Source of the DNA: Bifidobacterium longum subsp. longum JCM 1217
GTDB taxonomy: Bacteria > Actinomycetota > Actinomycetes > Actinomycetales > Bifidobacteriaceae
Length of the DNA: 32,000 nt
Reading direction: 5' to 3'
Assembly (NCBI RefSeq): GCF_000196555.1
Contig: NC_015067.1
Location: forward strand, 2,340,001-2,372,000
Shown here: positions 6,001 through 25,904 of the stretch, piece after piece
Layout of the letters: each line of letters starts with the position of its first letter
Position numbering within the stretch: the first letter of the stretch is position 1
Notes under the pieces: model-generated
Told to the model about the DNA's origin: nothing
The model's database searches: none
What the model saw: only the letters and a program-made list of their open reading frames with translations
Position numbers and translations under genes: made by a program

Positions 6001-7914
6001 TACAGTGACCTTGCCATCGCCGTCGACGGTCAGGTTGCTGTTCTCGATGAGGCTCTGCGGACGCAGCGCAGACAGCAAATCAATACCAAGCGAATCGAGC
6101 AGACCACCCACGTTGCCGTTGCGGCTTACTCCGGCGAAGCCACCGGCGTATTGCGTTGCCTGCACGGTGAAACCATTCGTGCTCGTCACCGAAGAGTTCT
6201 CAATGATTGCACCAATCTGCGCACCGACGAAGCCGCCGGCCTGCGGGTTGTCCTTGTTGCCGATCACCACGTTCTTTTTGAACCCGTTCACCGAACTGTT
6301 CGAGATAACCGGGTTGTAGTAGCCAACCGGAATCAAGGCATTCAGCCCGAGCGTGCCGGACAGCAACCAGTCCACCAGATCGCCCAGCCCGAGGAATGGG
6401 ATGACACCCAAGATCTTCGAGAGTACATTGGTGAGCGTTCCCACGATGCCGGAGACCGCATCGTATCGGGTTGCGCCCTCAACATATCCCACGAAACCAC
6501 CGGTCATACGGCTTACGCTGGATACCGAAACATCCGCCACTTCACAATCCGTGACCTTGGCATCGCCGTAAATACGGCCGGCGAACGCACCCGTGGCGAG
6601 ATTGGAGGGATTGTCTTTGTGCAGGGTGAGCAGACCTCGAAGATTGAGGCCAAGATCTACTTGTCCGAATGTCAGCAGTTTCAACGCCTTAAGCAGAAGA
6701 TCCAAAAGTCCACCCACTGCCGAAGTGAGCATACCGAGCAAGGTCGCCGGAATATACGATTCACTCGTATGATTCGCCACCGACACATCCTGCAGCTTGA
6801 GGTTCGACACCACGGCCGTACCGGCGCTGCCCAGACTGTTGCTGTTCATCACGGTCTTGTTCGTGATCGAGGCGAAGAAGCCGATGCCCTGCTGCTTGCT
6901 GACATCCAGCTGGTCGCCTTTGACATTAGAGACCATATCTTTCTGATTGACGACCACATGGCTGATGACCGGCCGAGCTGCGGTAGCGTGAACCACGCTT
7001 GCGCCATCGGCACCAACAGCCTTCCACAGGCTGGCTGCGGTGTCGCCGTCATTGGAGACCGCACCGAGCATAGTGCCGGAGAACATGAGCGGAGTCCACT
7101 CGGTGTTGTTGGTATCTGCCGCGTTCTTGGACAGGTCGATGTCACGGAAGATCAGGTAGTTGGCGTCTGCGGAATAGGTCAGGCCGGTGTTGGCAGCGGA
7201 GTAGTCCGTTTGCGTGCCATCAGCACCCACGCCGTAATACTTGATGCGGGTATTACCAGCGTCCACTTTCGTACGACATATCGCCAGCGAATTGTCATAG
7301 TCGGAGGCATCAGCATCGCGCAAAGTATCTGAATCGGAGAGATCGGCGTCACCGGCGTATTCGGAAGACGGCGTGCCGTCCACCCACTGATAATTGGGTC
7401 CTTGTCGCATGCAAGTCTGCGTGACCTTGTTGATGCGGCCAATAACCTTCTTGCCGGAACCAATCGCACGCAGCTGCTGCTCGTTACCAATCAGGATGTA
7501 GGTCTTGCCGTTGATCTCCTTGGTGACCTGACCCTCAAAGTCACGGCCGCCAAGCGCCGTCGCGGCGACCTGCACATTGGCCTTCGCCGGCGATTGATCC
7601 GTCGCATTTGAGGAATCGTTCTTGGCATCTTGAGAAGAAGCATCGTTTGGAGCCTGCGTTTGGGCTCCATCATTGGCGGAATTGCCAGCGGCAGCTTCTG
7701 CTGAGTCGTCCGCCTTATTGTCTGTCGCACCATTTGAGGATTCGGAAGAATCACCAGTAGTAGAAGATGAAGGAGATGAATCCTGCTGTGCGTCTTGATT
7801 CGTTTCGGAAGGTGTTGGCGCACCGTTTGATGTATTGGCCTCTTCTGACGTCTTATCGTCAACGTTGACATTGCGAGCAGAAGGAGCAGCTACGACAGTA
7901 TTACCCCCCCCTCC
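1..7914 (-). CDS. Giant secreted surface repeat protein, main body (GLUG-like GG[FLIY][AVSI]G repeats). The C-terminus lies beyond the window. A frameshift at 7904-7911 separates it from its signal-peptide segment.
   Basis: The minus-strand frame with codon first bases at coordinates divisible by 3 is open from the TGA at 7915-7917 down to position 1 (2,638 codons). I hand-translated 7914 down to about 4860 without meeting a stop. The ORF track lists no minus-strand ORF in this frame, as expected if it ends outside the window. The product starts GGGGNTVVAAPSARNVNVDDKTSEEANTS and has a Ser/Asp/Asn/Thr-rich linker. It then carries many units such as QAGGFVGAQIGAIIENSSV, QYAGGFAGVSRNGNVGGLLDSLGIDLLSAL, DYAGGFSGAMANAYAVNNT, SHAGGFTGFAS, DYAGGLVGEGSGTVIGDS, SYAGGIAGNL, YYAGGAIGCATGGDV, EAGGFIGFSGPG, DYAAGGFYGQ, IAGGFVGFSTTG and IAGGYAGNFQSGKV. 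Confidence 0.8.
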
Positions 7915-8111
7915 TCAGAAATTACGGCATTAGGAGAGCTACTCACATCGTCTATATTCTGAGCATATGCTGCAGGCACCATGCACACGATGGACAAGGA
8001 AACAGCAATAACCGAAGCAAGGCAACGCTTCAAGGCATGGCTCTGCCGTCCAGATTCCTGTTCTGTTCCTCCGTTAAACCCGCAACGGACGAACTTCAAT
8101 TTCGAGCTCAC
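7890..8111 (-). pseudogene. N-terminal signal-peptide fragment of the giant surface-protein gene, terminated by the frameshift
   Basis: The ORF reads MSSKLKFVRCGFNGGTEQESGRQSHALKRCLASVIAVSLSIVCMVPAAYAQNIDDVSSSPNAVISEEGGVILS*. It has a basic n-region, a hydrophobic core ASVIAVSLSIVCMVPAA and an AYA|QN cleavage-type site. The frame hits TAG (7890-7892) four codons after the G8 tract. The body continues in the frame offset by one nucleotide. Confidence 0.7.
7904..7911 (-). repeat. Homopolymeric G8 tract (C8 on the plus strand) at the signal-peptide/body junction
   Basis: Plus strand 7901-7920 is ttaccccccc ctcctcagaa. With 8 G the leader frame reads GAG GAG GGG GGG GTA ATA CTG TCG TAG. With 9 G (or 6 G) it reads ...GGG GGG GGT AAT ACT GTC GTA GCT..., which is the long open frame. 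Confidence 0.9.
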
Positions 8112-8244
8112 TGTTTCCCCTCATAGATTCGCAATCCTCTTTTCGGGGGTTACTGCATATAATCATACCCCCTTTCTAGGAAAAAGTTGTCGAAAAACTA
8201 GAAAATGTTCATTTGCGGGGCCAGTTAGCGTACGTTTTCTAGGC

Positions 8245-8274
8245 AAAAAGAAAAGCCCCGCAGCTATGCAGGGC
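8245..8274 (-). terminator. Rho-independent terminator downstream of the ABC ATPase gene
   Basis: 8255-8262 (gccccgca) pairs with 8267-8274 (tgcagggc) at 7 of 8 bp with a 4-nt loop. On the minus strand it is followed by TTTTCTTTTT (complement of 8245-8254). It lies about 80 nt after the stop at 8356. Confidence 0.6.
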
Positions 8275-8355
8275 TTTTCCAACGAGGTCATAAGAGAGGA
8301 AGAGAATAACCTCGTTTAATGGTTGACGAAGCGATTAGACCTCGCCAAGTATCTA

Positions 8356-9483
8356 TTAGTTCAGACGCAGCTCAGTCGACGGAGCGAACAGGTGCATCTT
8401 GGCCGGGTCGATCTTGATCTTGACGGTCGCGCCAACCTTCGGCAGCGCACGCGGATTCACACGAATCGTGGTGAGCTTGTTCTGGTCGGACATGACCTGG
8501 GCAGCCTCAGCTGCGGAGCCATCGGTGATGATGTTGCCGTAGATGTAGCCATCGGAGCCCAGATCCTCGACGTTCACAACCTTCAGGGAGAAGGCGTTCG
8601 GGTCGTCAGCCGGGGCCAGACCAGCGTCCTCAGGACGGAAGCCGACCACGATCTGGCCGTTGTCTTCGGCGGTGAGCTTGTTGACGGCCTCAGCCGGCAG
8701 GTCCACGGTGTCCTCACCGATCTTCGCCTTGCCGTTGACCACCGGGTGGGTGTTCAGGTTCATCGACGGGGAGCCGATGAAGCCGGCGACGAAGACGTTG
8801 GCCGGACGATCGTACAGCTCAGTCGGGGCGCCGACCTGCTGCAGGATACCGAGCTTGATGACGGCGATGCGATCGCCCATCGTCAGGGCCTCGGTCTGAT
8901 CGTGGGTCACGTACAGGGTGGTGACACCCAGCTGGCGCTGCAGAGCAGCGATCTGGGTACGGGTCTGGACACGGAGCTTGGCGTCGAGGTTGGACAGCGG
9001 CTCATCCATGAGGAAGACCTTCGGCTCACGGACGATTGCACGACCCATGGCCACACGCTGACGCTGACCACCGGACAGAGCCTTCGGCTTGCGGTCGAGG
9101 TACTCGGTCAGGTCGAGAATCTCAGCGGCCTTCTCGACGCGCTTGCGAATCTCGTCCTTCGGAGTGCCGGCGATCTTCAGGGCGAAGCCCATGTTGTCGG
9201 CAACGGTCATGTGCGGGTACAGAGCGTAGTTCTGGAACACCATTGCGATGTCGCGGTCCTTCGGCTGCATCGTGGTGACATCCTTGCCACCAATGAGGAT
9301 GCGGCCCTTGTTGACCTCTTCCAGGCCGGCGAGCATACGAAGGGTCGTAGACTTACCACAGCCAGAAGGGCCGACGAGGACGAGGAACTCGCCATCCTTG
9401 ATATCAAGATTCAGATCATCCACGGAGGGCTTATCGTTGCCCGGGTAGATACGAGTGACGTGGTCGAAAACGACTTCTGCCAT
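8356..9483 (-). CDS. Sugar ABC transporter ATP-binding protein, MsiK/MalK/UgpC family (orphan ATPase, no adjacent permease genes)
   Basis: 375 aa. It has Walker A GPSGCGKST, signature LSGGQRQR, Walker B VFLMDEP and H-loop YVTHDQ, plus a C-terminal MalK-type regulatory/TOBE-like region. An AAAGGA SD lies upstream of the ATG. Confidence 0.93.
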   Translation of the reverse strand: MAEVVFDHVTRIYPGNDKPSVDDLNLDIKDGEFLVLVGPSGCGKSTTLRMLAGLEEVNKGRILIGGKDVTTMQPKDRDIAMVFQNYALYPHMTVADNMGFALKIAGTPKDEIRKRVEKAAEILDLTEYLDRKPKALSGGQRQRVAMGRAIVREPKVFLMDEPLSNLDAKLRVQTRTQIAALQRQLGVTTLYVTHDQTEALTMGDRIAVIKLGILQQVGAPTELYDRPANVFVAGFIGSPSMNLNTHPVVNGKAKIGEDTVDLPAEAVNKLTAEDNGQIVVGFRPEDAGLAPADDPNAFSLKVVNVEDLGSDGYIYGNIITDGSAAEAAQVMSDQNKLTTIRVNPRALPKVGATVKIKIDPAKMHLFAPSTELRLN

Positions 9484-11080: not shown

Positions 11081-12177
<1,097 letters not shown>

Positions 12178-16003: not shown

Positions 16004-16654
16004 TTACGGCTCCAACAGATCTTCGATGCGGCAGCCAAGCGTGCGGGCCAAAGCGAGCACGGTGGAGACGGCAGCTTTGCCAAGGTCTTTGCGGCGCTGC
16101 TCGTACATTTGGATGGAGCGCAGGGTAACGCCGGAGCGGCGGGCCAGCCCGGATTGGCTGAGTCCGGCGCGCACGCGGATCGTGTGCAGCCGGGAGTCGC
16201 CCTCGGTGCGATTATGGGCGGCCCGCTCGTCGTACACGTCGACGAATCGGCTTTCGTCGGCTTCGTGCAAAGCCGGGTAAAGTCGCACGATATCGCCGAG
16301 CGACAGCACATCGAGAATGTCCGAGAACCGCACTCCCCTGGCCCATTGGCAGTATGCGAGTACCCATCCGGCCCAGTATTCGGGTGTTGAGCCGGCGCGC
16401 AGTGCGGCTGGCGGCATATCGAGAATGCGCGCCCAACCGGTTTGCCGCATGATTTCGGCCACCAGCTCCTCGCCGGACATGCCACACACGTATTTGGGCG
16501 TGCCTCGCCCGAAAAGCGCGGCCGCCTCGGAGGTGGCGAAGAAGTCCATGAATAGGCCGACCGGCAACCCGCAATCGTTCAGCGCATAATCGAAGGCGCC
16601 GGCCAAGTTGGCCATGGCGTCCGGCAAGTATGTCTCATCGTAGGCGGTGATCAT
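16004..16654 (-). CDS. Two-domain protein: N-terminal DUF3791-like region plus C-terminal XRE-family helix-turn-helix
   Basis: 216 aa. The C-terminus LHTIRVRAGLSQSGLARRSGVTLRSIQMYEQRRKDLGKAAVSTVLALARTLGCRIEDLL is a classic Cro/C1 HTH. The ATG lies inside the last codons of the upstream gene, a 20-nt overlap. Confidence 0.8.
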   Translation of the reverse strand: MITAYDETYLPDAMANLAGAFDYALNDCGLPVGLFMDFFATSEAAALFGRGTPKYVCGMSGEELVAEIMRQTGWARILDMPPAALRAGSTPEYWAGWVLAYCQWARGVRFSDILDVLSLGDIVRLYPALHEADESRFVDVYDERAAHNRTEGDSRLHTIRVRAGLSQSGLARRSGVTLRSIQMYEQRRKDLGKAAVSTVLALARTLGCRIEDLLEP

Positions 16655-17318
16655 CGTTGGTCACTTTCTCACGGATGATGTCGCGCATGAACAGGCCGTC
16701 GAGATCGGCTTCAGCGCTGTTGCGACGGTAAGCTTCACGAGCCGTGCGGTCGCGCTCGTTGCGCAATACGTGGTAGGTCGAAGCGCGGGCGATTTCGCAG
16801 CCTTGGAACCGCAGCGCCGCGAATGCCTGAGGACTGGTGAGTACGATCTGCTTGCCGAGCTCACCCAACCGCATCGCCTCGGCGAGTTGGTCGAGGGAAA
16901 TCGCGTTATTGACAAAAGCGCGGGCGAACGAGAAATACGAATCGTCGGCACGATATCCGACGATGACGTCAGACTGACTGGTATCCGGCAGAGACACTTG
17001 TTTCAGATATTCGATGCCTTGCGCGGCGACGGTGGTGGTCGGCTGGAAACGACGGTTTTCGACCAGCAGGGCCAACCAGTTCAGGATGGTGTAGGGCAAC
17101 TGGGACAGGTCCAGGAAGGTGAGCCCGTTGGTGGCCAATGTGTACCGATTCGCGAAACCGTCATCCAGTCCCGCGCACGCCCATTCCTTGGCCAGCTCGA
17201 CGCTGCGCGTGCAATAGAATCCGCGGCCATAATCGTTGTTCGGCTTGACCAGCCCGTATTCAGGATGCTTGATGACATGCGAAGAGCCATGCCACAGTTC
17301 GATCGATGCGGTCTCCAT
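16635..17318 (-). CDS. DUF3990-like protein (possible ADP-ribosyltransferase-fold enzyme)
   Basis: 227 aa starting METASIELWHGSSHVIKHPEYGLVKPNNDYGRGFYCTRSVELAKEWA. It shows the WHGS and GxGFY signatures. A strong SD GAAGGAG precedes the ATG. Confidence 0.75.
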   Translation of the reverse strand: METASIELWHGSSHVIKHPEYGLVKPNNDYGRGFYCTRSVELAKEWACAGLDDGFANRYTLATNGLTFLDLSQLPYTILNWLALLVENRRFQPTTTVAAQGIEYLKQVSLPDTSQSDVIVGYRADDSYFSFARAFVNNAISLDQLAEAMRLGELGKQIVLTSPQAFAALRFQGCEIARASTYHVLRNERDRTAREAYRRNSAEADLDGLFMRDIIREKVTNDDHRLR

Positions 17319-18472: not shown

Positions 18473-19579
18473 ATGAAGGCAAAGGAAAACCCATTCAAGC
18501 CAACGGCAGGAGGGGAACCGCCCCTGCTCATCGGCCGAGGCAAAGTTATCCGCGATTTCGAGAAAGGTCTCGATAACGGAGTCGGTGCCCCAGGGCGCAT
18601 TATGCTCGTCACCGGCGCTCGTGGAACCGGAAAAACCGTGATGCTCACTGTGTTCGGAGACCGGGCCAAAGCGCGCAGATGGGATGTCATCGAAGAAACG
18701 GCCTCTGCCGGACTATGCGAACGCCTTGTTGATGCCTTACGAACCGGGCGAGGGGCCCTTGACCACCTCACTATCCGACCATCGTTGACTTTTGCTGGAG
18801 CGGGCATCGGCCTCGGAGAAGCCGAACTATCCCCGAAGCGTATGCCCGAAACGTTGAGAAGTGCCATTGCCGGACGGTTGGATGCGCTTGAGAAGCGCCA
18901 TGCTGGGTTGCTTATCACCATTGATGAGACTCAAGCGGCTGAGCGATCCGACATGATTGCCATCGCCACTGCCATACAGCATCAAATCAGGGAACGACGC
19001 AATATCGCCATCGTGTTCGCCGGTCTCCCACAGATGATTTCTGATTTGTTCAATGACGAAGTCATCACGTTCCTACGTCGCGCGAAAACGAACATACTCA
19101 CAGATATTCCTCTTGATGAAGTGCGCGATGCTTTCGCCACAACATTCCGCGCCTCCGGCATGTCCATCACCGACGCTCAATTAAGCACTGCAGCCAATGT
19201 GACAGCCGGATACCCCTATATGATTCAACTGGTTGGCTACCATATCTGGGATGCCGCAGACATGCGGGACTCGGATACCATCATCGACGCTGATGTTACG
19301 GCAGGTATCGAGGAAGCACGTATTGACCTTGATAACGCCGTGTGCATCCCGGAGTTGCAAGGCTTATCCAAAAACGACCGTGAGTATCTCGAAGCCATGG
19401 CAGCGTCAGATGGTCCCTCTCCCACCGTGAATGTTGCACAGCGCATGGGCAAAACGCCTAACTATGCCGCCACCTACCGCAAACGCCTCCTTGACGCCTT
19501 CGTTATCCGCGAAACAGAACGAGGCGAAGTCGATTTTGCCGTGCCCTTCCTGCGCGAATACTTGCGTCGGAATCAGTAA
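18473..19579 (+). CDS. Orphan AAA+ ATPase (Orc1/Cdc6-like or STAND-like N-terminus) with a C-terminal winged-helix domain
   Basis: 368 aa starting NPFKPTAGGEPPLLIGRGKVIRDFEKGL...LVTGARGTGKTVML (Walker A), with Walker B LLITIDE. The C-terminal LSKNDREYLEAMAASDGPSPTVNVAQRMGKTPNYAATYRKRLLDAFVI looks like a wHTH. It has many A/T-ending codons relative to its neighbours. Confidence 0.8.
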   Translation: MKAKENPFKPTAGGEPPLLIGRGKVIRDFEKGLDNGVGAPGRIMLVTGARGTGKTVMLTVFGDRAKARRWDVIEETASAGLCERLVDALRTGRGALDHLTIRPSLTFAGAGIGLGEAELSPKRMPETLRSAIAGRLDALEKRHAGLLITIDETQAAERSDMIAIATAIQHQIRERRNIAIVFAGLPQMISDLFNDEVITFLRRAKTNILTDIPLDEVRDAFATTFRASGMSITDAQLSTAANVTAGYPYMIQLVGYHIWDAADMRDSDTIIDADVTAGIEEARIDLDNAVCIPELQGLSKNDREYLEAMAASDGPSPTVNVAQRMGKTPNYAATYRKRLLDAFVIRETERGEVDFAVPFLREYLRRNQ

Positions 19580-22909: not shown

Positions 22910-23887
22910 ATGTCAGATCCGAAGCGTCAGGCCAAGCGTGCCACACGCGCTGAGCGCCGAGCGGCCGAGGAGGCCGCCCAGCAGGCACGGGCCGAGCAGG
23001 CAGCCAAGGAGCGTAAGCAGCAGACCATCATCGGCTGCATTGTGGTGGCCATTATTGTGGTGCTGGTGGCCATCGCTGGATTCGCCGTATACAAGGCTAT
23101 GCGGCCGTCCAACACCAGCAGCAGTAGCCAGCAAAGCAACATGACCGCGGACGAGGCCTATAGCAAGCTCAAGAAAGTCAGTACCCAGCCGGCTAACGCC
23201 GACGACAAGGCCGGCTTCGTAATCTCCAACAAAGGGTATGGCCAGAAAGCCGAGGGGGCTCCCACCGTATCCATCTACATGGAACCGCTGTGCCCCGGCT
23301 GCGCCTCGGTGAACCGCCAACTCGACCCGACGCTCGTCAAGCTGATGAACGCAGGCCAGCTCAACATCGATTTGCACTTCCTCAATTTCCAGAACAACAA
23401 GAGCTCCGACAACTACTCCAACCGCGTGTTCAACGGTGCCATCTACATTGCCGAGCATGATGACGATCCCGACCACCTCATGAGCTACCTCTCCAACATC
23501 TACGCTGAGGATTTCCAGCCGGGCGAATTGTCCAATTACGAGCCGGTAAACAACGCCAAGCTGGAGAAGCAGGCCGTCAAGGCCGGCGTGAGCGAGGATG
23601 TGGCCGCCGCGGCGTTCAGCGGCAAGAACGAATACCTCGACTGGCTCACCGCCTCCAACAACTACACGATCCTGCGCCCCGAACTGTTCAACAGCTCCGG
23701 CGCCTTCTCCTCCCCCACACTCACCATCAACGGCGAATACTGGGATCTGAAGCAGCTCACGCTGGCGGACACGAATATGGTGGACGGCTTCCTCAAGTCC
23801 ATTGGGCTGGATGCTGACCAGGTAGGCGTGGAAGGCAAAATGCCATCCATCGGTGCCAGCGGAAAGCCGATTTCGGTCGCCTCCTGA
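22910..23887 (+). CDS. Membrane-anchored DsbA-like thiol:disulfide oxidoreductase
   Basis: 325 aa with a basic N-terminus, one TM segment (IIGCIVVAIIVVLVAIAGFAVY) and a thioredoxin-fold CPGC motif (MEPLCPGCASV). An AAGGGGA SD is present. Confidence 0.85.
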   Translation: MSDPKRQAKRATRAERRAAEEAAQQARAEQAAKERKQQTIIGCIVVAIIVVLVAIAGFAVYKAMRPSNTSSSSQQSNMTADEAYSKLKKVSTQPANADDKAGFVISNKGYGQKAEGAPTVSIYMEPLCPGCASVNRQLDPTLVKLMNAGQLNIDLHFLNFQNNKSSDNYSNRVFNGAIYIAEHDDDPDHLMSYLSNIYAEDFQPGELSNYEPVNNAKLEKQAVKAGVSEDVAAAAFSGKNEYLDWLTASNNYTILRPELFNSSGAFSSPTLTINGEYWDLKQLTLADTNMVDGFLKSIGLDADQVGVEGKMPSIGASGKPISVAS

Positions 23888-24242: not shown

Positions 24243-24294
24243 GGGGGCGGGAACATCCCCTTCTCTCCCGCCCCCCCTTTTCTTTTCTTTTTTT
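24243..24294 (+). terminator. Strong rho-independent terminator
   Basis: gggggcggga (24243-24252) pairs perfectly with tcccgccccc (24266-24275) with a 13-nt loop acatccccttctc. It is followed by TTTTCTTTTCTTTTTTT (24278-24294). Confidence 0.8.
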
Positions 24295-24407: not shown

Positions 24408-25904
24408 ATGGCAATGGCACGGCGTTGGACCCCGCAGCGGTTTGTTACACTGCGTCGCATCCGCGTAATCGCCTGTATCGCGGCGACCAGTATCGCGCTG
24501 GCTGGATCATTCGCGTTCACCGCGCGTAAATCCGTGGCCCTGAACATCAACGGGCAAACCACCCAAGTCACCACATATGCGATGACGGCCACCCGTCTTC
24601 TGGAGGAACAAGGGGTGGATATCAAGACCCACGATATCGTCACTACCTCGTCCGGCGACCAGCTCGCCAATCATGCCGTGGTCACCGTACAGTCCGCCTA
24701 CCAGACCACTATCAACATCGACGGCACGTCCGTTCCCTTCTGGACCGTGGCCACCAGTGCCGACCAGCTACTGGGATTTTTCGAGGAAAACCAGAACAAC
24801 GCCGCGAAGATCACCGTCGACATCGACAATGTGTACAACCAGCTCACCGGCGGACTGGTCATCAATCAGGATGGCCCGGTCACCGTCATTGCGGACGGCA
24901 AGACTTCCGTGGCCCCCAACGGCAAACTGCCTGCGGCCTCCATTCTTGACTCCAAAGGCATCGTGCTGAACAAAGAGGACCGTGTGAGCGTCGAAAAGGA
25001 CGGCGATACCACTATCCTGCGCGTACGGCGCGTGACGCATGGCGAGGAAACGCGCACAGCCGTAGTGCCATACTCCACACAAACCATCATCGACTCCAAT
25101 CTTCCTGAAGGCCAGTCGGAGATCCGCCAGCAAGGCGTCAATGGCGAGAAAACCCAGGTGTATAACGTCACGTATGTCGATGGCGTGGCCGAATCGGAGA
25201 CGCTGAAATCCGAAACCGTCACCACGATGGCCATCGACCAGATCATCGCCGTAGGCGCCGCCAAGTCTGATACCGATAAAGGTTCCGACAAAAAATCCGA
25301 CTCCGCCGATAACGGCAAGGCCGATTCCGGTTTCAACAATCAGCACGAGTCGTCCGGTAACAATGCCAACAACACAGGCGACAAGAACAACAGCAGCTCT
25401 GGCAACAACACGAACACCGATACCAACAACAATGCCGGCAACACCGGCGGCAACAACTCCGGTAACTCCGGTAACACCGGCAATTCCGGTAACACTGGTA
25501 ATTCCGGTAACACCGGCGGCGGTACGAACAACAATTCCGGCTCTTCTGGCTCCGATTCAGGCACAACCACCACGCCCTCCGGCCGCCTGTGGCACGCCAC
25601 CGTAGCCCAGGCTCAGGCCTATGCCGCCGGTGCCGCCGCGCAGCGCGGGTGGACAGGCAACGACTGGGATTGTCTGGTCAAACTATGGACCCGCGAGTCC
25701 AGTTGGCTGTGGTATGCCGAAAACGCGAGCTCCGGTGCCTACGGCATTCCTCAGTCGCTACCAGCAGACAAAATGGCTGCGTTCGGTGCCAATTACCGTG
25801 ACGATGCCGCCGTACAGATCGATTGGGGTCTGTGGTACATCGCACAAGCCTACGGCAGCCCGTCCAAGGCATGGCAACATTCCGAACAAGTCGGTTGGTA
25901 CTGA
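24408..25904 (+). CDS. RpfB-like secreted muralytic protein: signal/TM anchor, DUF348 repeats, G5 domain, Asn/Ser/Gly/Thr-rich linker, C-terminal lysozyme-like (SLT/Apf-type) domain
   Basis: 498 aa. There are three DUF348-like repeats, then a G5-like segment (RRVTHGEETRTAVVPYSTQTIIDSNLPEGQSEIRQQGVNGEKTQVYNVTYVDG). The C-terminus is WDCLVKLWTRESSWLWYAENASSGAYGIPQS...YGSPSKAWQHSEQVGWY. An AGGAAG SD is present. Confidence 0.85.
   Translation: MAMARRWTPQRFVTLRRIRVIACIAATSIALAGSFAFTARKSVALNINGQTTQVTTYAMTATRLLEEQGVDIKTHDIVTTSSGDQLANHAVVTVQSAYQTTINIDGTSVPFWTVATSADQLLGFFEENQNNAAKITVDIDNVYNQLTGGLVINQDGPVTVIADGKTSVAPNGKLPAASILDSKGIVLNKEDRVSVEKDGDTTILRVRRVTHGEETRTAVVPYSTQTIIDSNLPEGQSEIRQQGVNGEKTQVYNVTYVDGVAESETLKSETVTTMAIDQIIAVGAAKSDTDKGSDKKSDSADNGKADSGFNNQHESSGNNANNTGDKNNSSSGNNTNTDTNNNAGNTGGNNSGNSGNTGNSGNTGNSGNTGGGTNNNSGSSGSDSGTTTTPSGRLWHATVAQAQAYAAGAAAQRGWTGNDWDCLVKLWTRESSWLWYAENASSGAYGIPQSLPADKMAAFGANYRDDAAVQIDWGLWYIAQAYGSPSKAWQHSEQVGWY
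25461..25514 (+). repeat. Coding 18-bp tandem repeat x3 (GNSGNT hexapeptide) within the low-complexity linker
   Basis: The repeat is ggtaactccggtaacacc / ggcaattccggtaacact / ggtaattccggtaacacc. The flanking about 230 bp is an AAC/GGC/ACC-rich low-complexity coding sequence. Confidence 0.85.

Follow-up and report, generated by a model that had tools for sequence, protein, structure and literature searches.

A stretch of 32,000 nucleotides (nt) from Bifidobacterium longum subsp. longum JCM 1217 (NC_015067.1, positions 2,340,001 to 2,372,000), in the following called the window, carries at its left edge a giant surface-protein gene in which a run of eight G residues separates the signal peptide from a body encoded in another frame. 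We conclude with good confidence that this locus is a poly-G contingency switch, found here in its OFF state, of the single sortase-dependent pilus operon of B. longum (BL0674-BL0676 type). Four sets of observations carry this conclusion: the anatomy of the gene, the operon context in relatives, the hypermutability of the tract between strains, and purifying selection on the body. A slipped-strand ON/OFF switch had already been the leading idea of an earlier description made from the letters of this DNA (the initial annotation); given the hypervariable tract, the constrained body, the pilin-sortase operon in relatives and a published case in B. breve, it is probably the right one. That a switch poly-G exists at the B. 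longum pilus locus is already known from the literature. The part specific to the window is an interrupted and shorter tract.

Anatomy of leader, tract and body

All elements of the gene lie on the minus strand. Start codon, leader, G8 run and stop codons were obtained by reading the sequence, the leader open reading frame (ORF) also by translation.

8111-8109, minus strand: start codon GTG, preceded by GAGGGG at 8122-8117
7890-8111, minus strand: leader ORF with the tract at 8 G, 73 codons and a TAG stop
8111-7962, minus strand: Sec signal peptide, residues 1-50, cleavage at AYA/QN
7904-7916, minus strand: imperfect G tract GAGGAGGGGGGGG, candidate slippage site
7911-7904, minus strand: pure G8 run within the tract (C8 on the plus strand)
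7915-7917, minus strand: TGA closing the body frame directly 5' of the tract
7901-7903, minus strand: TAA in the second out-of-frame register, directly after the G run (same layout in the frame translation of contig L001)
1-7914, minus strand: body ORF of a giant LPXTG surface protein, 2,638 codons open, running off the window edge
7573-7575, minus strand: GTG at codon 114, earliest possible start in the body frame (scan for ATG, GTG and TTG)

In translation, the signal peptide shows a basic stretch (..ALKR), then the hydrophobic core CLASVIAVSLSIVCMVPAA, then the cleavage site. The leader crosses the tract with the codons TCT GAG GAG GGG GGG GTA ATA CTG TCG and ends at the TAG at 7892-7890, while the other OFF frame meets the TAA at 7901-7903, such that both terminate at most five codons past the tract. 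The body has a linker rich in Ser, Thr and Asp, numerous GLUG-like repeats of the type 'AGGF.G' and an LPDTG at 27-13; its visible end reads ..LPDTGGAGT, where the window edge truncates a sortase sorting motif. The giant LPXTG protein is a probable pilus tip or minor subunit. For the body, the Pfam family Glug (PF07581) stayed below threshold with 19.3 bits versus a cut-off of 20.5, the 'AGGF.G' repeats being recognized by eye only, and the NCBIfam profiles gave zero matches.

The body frame has no secretion signal of its own to fall back on. It is closed upstream by the TGA, and the GTG at codon 114 is followed by QVAATALGG, with no hydrophobic leader and no signal peptide; gene callers begin the body ORF at this very GTG on out-of-frame contigs (P0007 and others). 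Editing the tract in silico by one additional G or two fewer fuses leader and body to a single ORF without stops. Leader and body together carry one lesion in 2,711 visible codons. On all these points the initial annotation was accurate: it had described the leader at 8111-7890 with its signal peptide, the G8 at 7904-7911 with the leader stop four codons on (after GTA ATA CTG TCG), a body frame of more than 2,600 codons closed by the TGA and devoid of another secretion signal, and fusion of both parts in the G9 or G6 state.

No other run in the 7.9-kb gene exceeds 5, and the G8 run is placed exactly between signal peptide and body. By itself such a run is not improbable, because a simple composition model at 60% G+C predicts approximately 2.9 G/C runs of at least 8 per 32 kb; improbability of the run was therefore dropped as an argument. 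The non-random aspects are that it is the only long run in the gene, its position, and its extreme polymorphism between strains.

Operon context and transcription unit

In syntenic contigs of relatives (L005, L009, L010) the giant gene is followed by an LPXTG major pilin of the SpaH/EbpB family (530-564 aa) and then by a class C sortase (327 aa), which score 136 bits (cut-off 95) and 287 bits (cut-off 160), respectively, with the NCBIfam profiles. From this arrangement the locus appears to be the sortase-dependent pilus cluster of three genes known from B. longum, bl0674-bl0676 in NCC2705. We infer that the gene of the window is BL0674 from species, synteny and the uniqueness of the cluster. 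In published work the B. longum locus is named BL0674-BL0676, BLD_1467-69, B8809_1829-31 or BBMN68_1404-06 (Schell 2002; PMC4735030; PMC4618763; PMC9187656). For its tract, Table 1 of Penno et al. 2022 (Sci Rep 12:9576, PMC9187656) lists G12 in NCIMB8809, G11 in NCC2705 (BL0674-76), and G10 in both DJO10A and BBMN68. The initial annotation had mentioned that G-tract slippage switches are discussed for bifidobacterial pilus genes; they are indeed published there, the B. longum locus included.

Upstream of the leader, two elements delimit the gene.

8249-8280, minus strand: intrinsic terminator of the upstream ABC (ATP-binding cassette) ATPase gene, stem of 14 bp (7 GC pairs), T tail
8112-8248, minus strand: promoter and 5' leader region, with TATGAT at about 8167-8162 and the Shine-Dalgarno sequence GAGGGG at 8122-8117

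The strong predicted terminator at 8280-8249 marks the pilus gene as a putative transcription unit of its own. A scan with the sigma-70 consensus gave no match upstream of the leader, and hence the promoter position is only a tentative one. In many contigs (e.g. L008, L014) a T6 run lies approximately 80 nt 5' of the leader start, in the context CAAATGAACG-T6-GTTCTTTTGTCA; rare T5, T7 and T9 variants of it occur, and the sequence of the window differs there.

Tract variation between strains

The survey set is composed of at least 118 human-gut contigs found by scanning the DNA of public metagenome contigs for exact matches to the flanks of the tract (GCCGTAATTTCT and AATRCTGTCG), 8 contigs from protein and genome look-ups, and the window, 127 copies in total. 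The scan contigs L012-L129 constitute the unbiased set. Counts of tract forms, frames and lesions, here and below, are those among the matches listed. ON/OFF frequencies were taken from this DNA pattern scan, because the matches of a protein search were all shorter than 740 aa and hence show fragments only; frequencies from the protein search were dropped.

The initial annotation had pointed to the tract of other strains as informative, and it proves to be extremely variable: 38 distinct tract strings were found in the 127 copies, with G runs of 5-13 and frequent A interruptions near the 5' end. In-frame tracts make up 25% of the unbiased set (29/118), about or slightly under the one third expected if length were free. 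Among contig pairs sharing identical 150-bp flanks, 306 of 356 differ in the tract, and so do 34 of the 40 pairs sharing identical 300-bp flanks. Control homopolymers of 5-7 nt in the same contigs show a single length in 90-100% of copies. Since flank-identical pairs differ and other homopolymers are constant, the tract mutates far faster than its surroundings, and its variability is not a general homopolymer artefact.

Some contigs found along the way deserve mention. In 35 of the 36 public-collection blocks that hold the exact leader ORF (the look-up behind L130-L139), the longest contig with it is below 2 kb. Short-read assemblers seem to break around the locus, which may stay hidden in surveys based on metagenome-assembled genomes (MAGs). 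A genome scan returned homologues in B. jacchi, B. hapali and B. miconis only, at 54-64% identity. In B. hapali (L003) and B. miconis (L004), leader and body of the homologous giant gene share one frame, and a G9/G10 tract lies approximately 100-150 nt 5' of the start codon instead (L003:2475-2483, L004:2134-2143), in L004 directly after a TTGTCA hexamer; this arrangement may represent the same kind of switch acting through the promoter spacer. L001 (CALHJP010000019.1), the best match at the genome level and a 3.6-kb contig filed as an uncultured Collinsella MAG, carries a B. longum pilus leader and body start at 88% protein identity and is probably mis-binned. An affiliation of the gene with Collinsella, suggested by this label and by weak protein matches named Collinsella and Slackia, was rejected, as the flanking proteins match B. 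longum exactly.

State of the body

If the gene were an old pseudogene, its body should have decayed. In 20 out-of-frame contigs, however, the body is intact down to a normal basic C-terminal tail; 19 of these measure 2,650-2,690 codons, and the remaining one, L127, is shorter through an in-frame deletion (942 bp of repeat units, window-equivalent about 5230-4290, the gene being otherwise intact). Fully intact genes with an in-frame tract number only 3. Pairwise ratios of nonsynonymous to synonymous substitution rates (dN/dS) of the body range from 0.12 to 0.27 at dS 0.16-0.41, OFF-OFF pairs included, with the near-identical pair L013/L025 (dS 0.03, dN/dS 0.44) as an exception. The body of the window shows a single lesion and a dN/dS of 0.12-0.25 against 11 other alleles, and neither the several lesions nor the dN/dS near 1 of a decayed pseudogene were found. 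The body is thus under constraint although mostly out of frame in the consensus, as a reversible switch predicts and unlike a dead gene. For the past, the plain pseudogene that the initial annotation had offered as an alternative is disfavoured; as a possible incipient state it is taken up below.

Intactness and frame may not be independent. In the unbiased set, bodies behind in-frame tracts are broken in 13 cases versus 3 intact, and those behind out-of-frame tracts in 12 cases versus 20 intact (Fisher p = 0.006, with kinship and coverage ignored). All judgeable G5 and G6 alleles are broken, G5 being the locked-ON form. We regard the association of in-frame tracts with broken bodies as a lead only.

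Lesions elsewhere in the gene are diverse. At the equivalent of window positions about 6615-6625 some alleles have an in-frame poly-A run (A7), where the window has AAAGACAAT. A6 instead of A7 occurs in 3 of 28 copies with exact flanks, and L009 has lost 1 nt beside the run; the site corresponds to L005:~11420 and L009:~1530. These lesions split the gene into ORFs of approximately 500 aa and 2,200 aa and point out a second frameshift-prone site. Short direct repeats (CGATTAcgg / GGATTCACCGG) flank a 49-bp deletion (L010:~2300, L011:~2230, window-equivalent about 5905-5860) that frameshifts the body in a lineage with the G tract likewise out of frame. In L071 (7098-8519), L032, L035, L040, L056 and L092 the gene ends after approximately 135-156 codons at window-equivalent 7502, beside an rve-family transposase; past that junction lie unrelated LacI and sugar ABC transporter genes. 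An insertion sequence (IS)-associated event seems to have removed most of the pilus gene there, and probably the entire cluster with it. The linker at window positions about 7820-7760 shows a 63-bp in-frame indel in L032, L111 and L113. Several further contig frameshifts, in which a 2-nt run of a low-coverage assembly lacks 1 nt, were treated as unreliable. Two 'stops' at the ends of contigs L079 and L113 turned out to be false: they are assembled Nextera adapter, CTGTCTCTTATACACATCT, translated as ..SLIHISEPTR.., and protein P0002 bears the same adapter-derived tail. Altogether, IS-associated truncations, the 49-bp deletion and the frameshifts elsewhere make clear that the pilus gene is dispensable in the species.

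The allele of the window and alternative explanations

The window carries GAGGAG-G8-T, a tract of 14 nt that is out of frame and OFF; to turn ON, it needs one G more or two fewer. One might suspect that the true genome has G9 and an intact gene. Homopolymer G runs are error-prone on several platforms, and the authors of the B. breve study caution that G-tract lengths in annotations can be mistaken (PMC9187656). The identical string was found, however, in three contigs of the unbiased scan (L012, L017, L074), and the exact 73-aa OFF leader occurs in 36 public-collection blocks from varied studies and assemblers. All ten contigs fetched by leader look-up (L130-L139) bear the string of the window as well, G8 being given there by construction. 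Because at least 13 independent assemblies from separate samples (L012, L017, L074, L130-L139) carry the exact allele, a sequencing or assembly error, which the initial annotation had listed among its alternatives, is disfavoured. Moreover, other proteins of the window match reference proteins letter for letter, and three quarters of the natural copies are out of frame anyway. We consider an error hardly credible.

By its sequence, the allele would derive from a GAG11T tract through a single G-to-A change, leaving G8. An interrupted G8 should switch more slowly than the common G10-G12 tracts, and the allele may switch slowly or be locked OFF. The latter would make it an incipient pseudogene: the G-to-A change cut G11 to an out-of-frame G8, slippage became too rare, the gene is silent, and decay is starting. 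In line with this, all 14 copies of the window allele are exactly G8 (10 of them by construction), L074 with the same allele has acquired a nonsense codon near the C terminus, and the gene is dispensable in the species. On the other hand, the body of the window is open across all its 2,638 visible codons and differs from other alleles mostly by synonymous changes, so that any silencing must be recent. A G8 is counted as a switch tract in B. bifidum HN002 (PMC9187656, Table 1). Contigs sharing the 150-bp flanks of the window carry GAG7T and GAG10T, and hence the haplotype background is one that changes length. A locked allele, although the main rival to a live switch, is unlikely on balance, and it is in this form that the pseudogene alternative of the initial annotation survives.

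Expression might also be possible with no change in the DNA, if RNA polymerase slippage or ribosomal frameshifting on G8 let the gene act as a dimmer, possibly beside replication slippage. Foroni et al. 2011 (PMC3231923) proposed transcriptional slippage for B. bifidum PRL2010, where BBPR_1822 (fimB; ORF1822) with its G9 frameshift was called a pseudogene possibly rescued in this way. A leaky OFF state would help to explain why the majority of intact bodies lie behind out-of-frame tracts. However, no stimulatory RNA hairpin was found 5' of the G8: the segment of 87 nt that ends at the run folds with z = +1.39, less stably than shuffles. Programmed transcriptional slippage calls for such a nascent-RNA hairpin or a long A/T run, and the run here is G8. 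In B. breve, the out-of-frame parent lacks pili and shows polarity downstream of the short ORF, whereas strains engineered in frame make pili (PMC9187656), and the tract length plainly varies at the DNA level. We consider the dimmer improbable.

Several findings weigh against the contingency switch that we prefer. No in-frame GAGGAG-G9 or GAGGAG-G6 was seen in the four unbiased copies of the allele (three scan contigs and the window) or among the protein matches; hence this particular allele is at most a candidate for switching. The nonsense mutation in L074, at body codon 2506, hints at decay in the lineage. With published tracts ranging from 8 to 12 (PMC9187656), G8 is a short one. The consensus lengths G10-G13 come from short-read metagenome assemblies and carry some error, some contigs being of low coverage. 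The window stops short of the gene's last ~45 codons, of the pilin and of the sortase, all situated beyond base 1, such that the operon was read in contigs of relatives. Finally, the likeness to the B. breve gene bbr_1889b is one of layout, and the experiments are those made in B. breve.

Proposed mechanism and implications

For the contingency switch we propose the following course, modelled on B. breve. The first gene product would be a protein of approximately 2,700 aa, with its Sec signal peptide and its LPXTG body encoded in different frames on either side of the G tract. DNA polymerase slippage during replication would alter the tract length heritably. In-frame lengths would give rise to a secreted, sortase-processed giant protein and, via translation-transcription coupling, to expression of the downstream pilin and sortase, and thus to pilus production. 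At the remaining lengths translation would stop 1-5 codons past the tract, and polarity would silence the operon. In B. breve itself, error-corrected (duplex-type) deep sequencing revealed mixed tract lengths in a single-colony culture, and productive lengths were enriched 2- to 10-fold in the mouse gut (PMC9187656).

Among copies with an intact body, 20 of 23 are out of frame, and bodies behind in-frame tracts, as well as those of the judgeable G5 and G6 alleles, are mostly or all broken. A tentative explanation, about which we remain doubtful, is that in human guts the switch is held mostly OFF and constitutive expression is counter-selected, the interrupted G8 then being a selected slow-switching OFF variant. 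If true, this would contrast with the ON enrichment in mice and would suggest immune or phage pressure on the pilus in humans.

For one of the commonest human bifidobacteria the pilus is a candidate factor in gut adhesion, and whether it is produced at all depends on the tract. Annotation pipelines would label the gene a pseudogene or split it into two, and neither description is correct. As a strain property changeable in culture or host, the phase of the tract is relevant to probiotic strains. To the literature our survey adds a population view across approximately 120 human gut metagenomes: tracts of G5-G13, three quarters of them OFF, and a conserved body. The survey agrees with the published model and supports it, since the pattern is as expected of a working contingency locus.

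Further features of the window

The remaining part of the window is in good accordance with its origin from B. longum JCM 1217.

8356-9483, minus strand: MalK/UgpC-like ABC ATPase gene upstream of the pilus gene, product identical to BAJ67566 of B. longum JCM 1217
11081-12073: NrdF, identical to BAJ67568 of B. longum JCM 1217, with NrdE and NrdI next
22910-23887: DsbA-like protein, identical to BAJ67578 of B. longum JCM 1217

A C7 run at 24271-24277 (region 24243-24292), the only other long run, was considered as another switch candidate and rejected, as it belongs to a terminator-like structure: it makes up the 3' side of a GC-rich hairpin stem, GGGGGCGGGA...TCCCGCCCCC, with a T-rich tail after it. 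This hairpin precedes the gene of a G5/DUF348 protein (24408-25904), which has a long low-complexity stretch of Asn, Gly, Ser and Thr. At 16004-17318 (minus strand) and 18473-19579 (plus strand), a gene for a DUF3990 protein overlaps one for an HTH_3 protein, resembling a toxin-antitoxin pair, and a stand-alone AAA_16 ATPase adjoins.

Comparison with known systems

In B. breve UCC2003, Penno et al. 2022 (PMC9187656) described bbr_1889a (65 aa, signal peptide) and bbr_1889b (2,674 aa, LPXTG) with a G10 between them, and bbr_0113a/b separated by G11. The locus of the window shares with bbr_1889a/b the position as first gene of a sortase-dependent pilus cluster (read here in syntenic contigs), a short upstream ORF carrying the Sec signal (65 aa in B. 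breve versus 73 aa), a giant LPXTG ORF behind it (2,674 aa versus more than 2,638 aa), a homopolymeric G tract between both, a downstream ORF devoid of its own signal peptide, and variation of tract length at the DNA level, here seen between samples. It differs in that its tract is a G8 with two A interruptions instead of a pure G10, and in that the productive change is +1 or -2 instead of mainly -1.

With BBPR_1822 of B. bifidum PRL2010 the locus has in common a frameshift at a G run, located in the gene for a minor or tip pilin of a pilus cluster in Bifidobacterium, whereas species and cluster are different.

The likeness to BL0674-BL0676 is one within the same species, where only one sortase-dependent cluster exists and bears a poly-G. 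The same three genes are present, namely a giant protein, a polymorphic FimA-type pilin and a sortase, and the pilin lengths of 530-564 aa in syntenic contigs match the length polymorphism published for the BL0675 types. In contrast to the G10-G12 of the listed B. longum strains, the allele of the window retains G8 after its interruption.

The classical contingency loci of Neisseria, Haemophilus and Campylobacter have a homopolymer within the 5' part of the coding sequence of surface genes. The locus of the window resembles them in a homopolymer placed just past the signal sequence, in having about one third of the possible lengths in frame, and in a tract that changes far faster than its flanks. 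Unlike them, it resides in a Gram-positive commensal actinobacterium and, judging from B. breve, its switch would also control a whole pilus operon by polarity.

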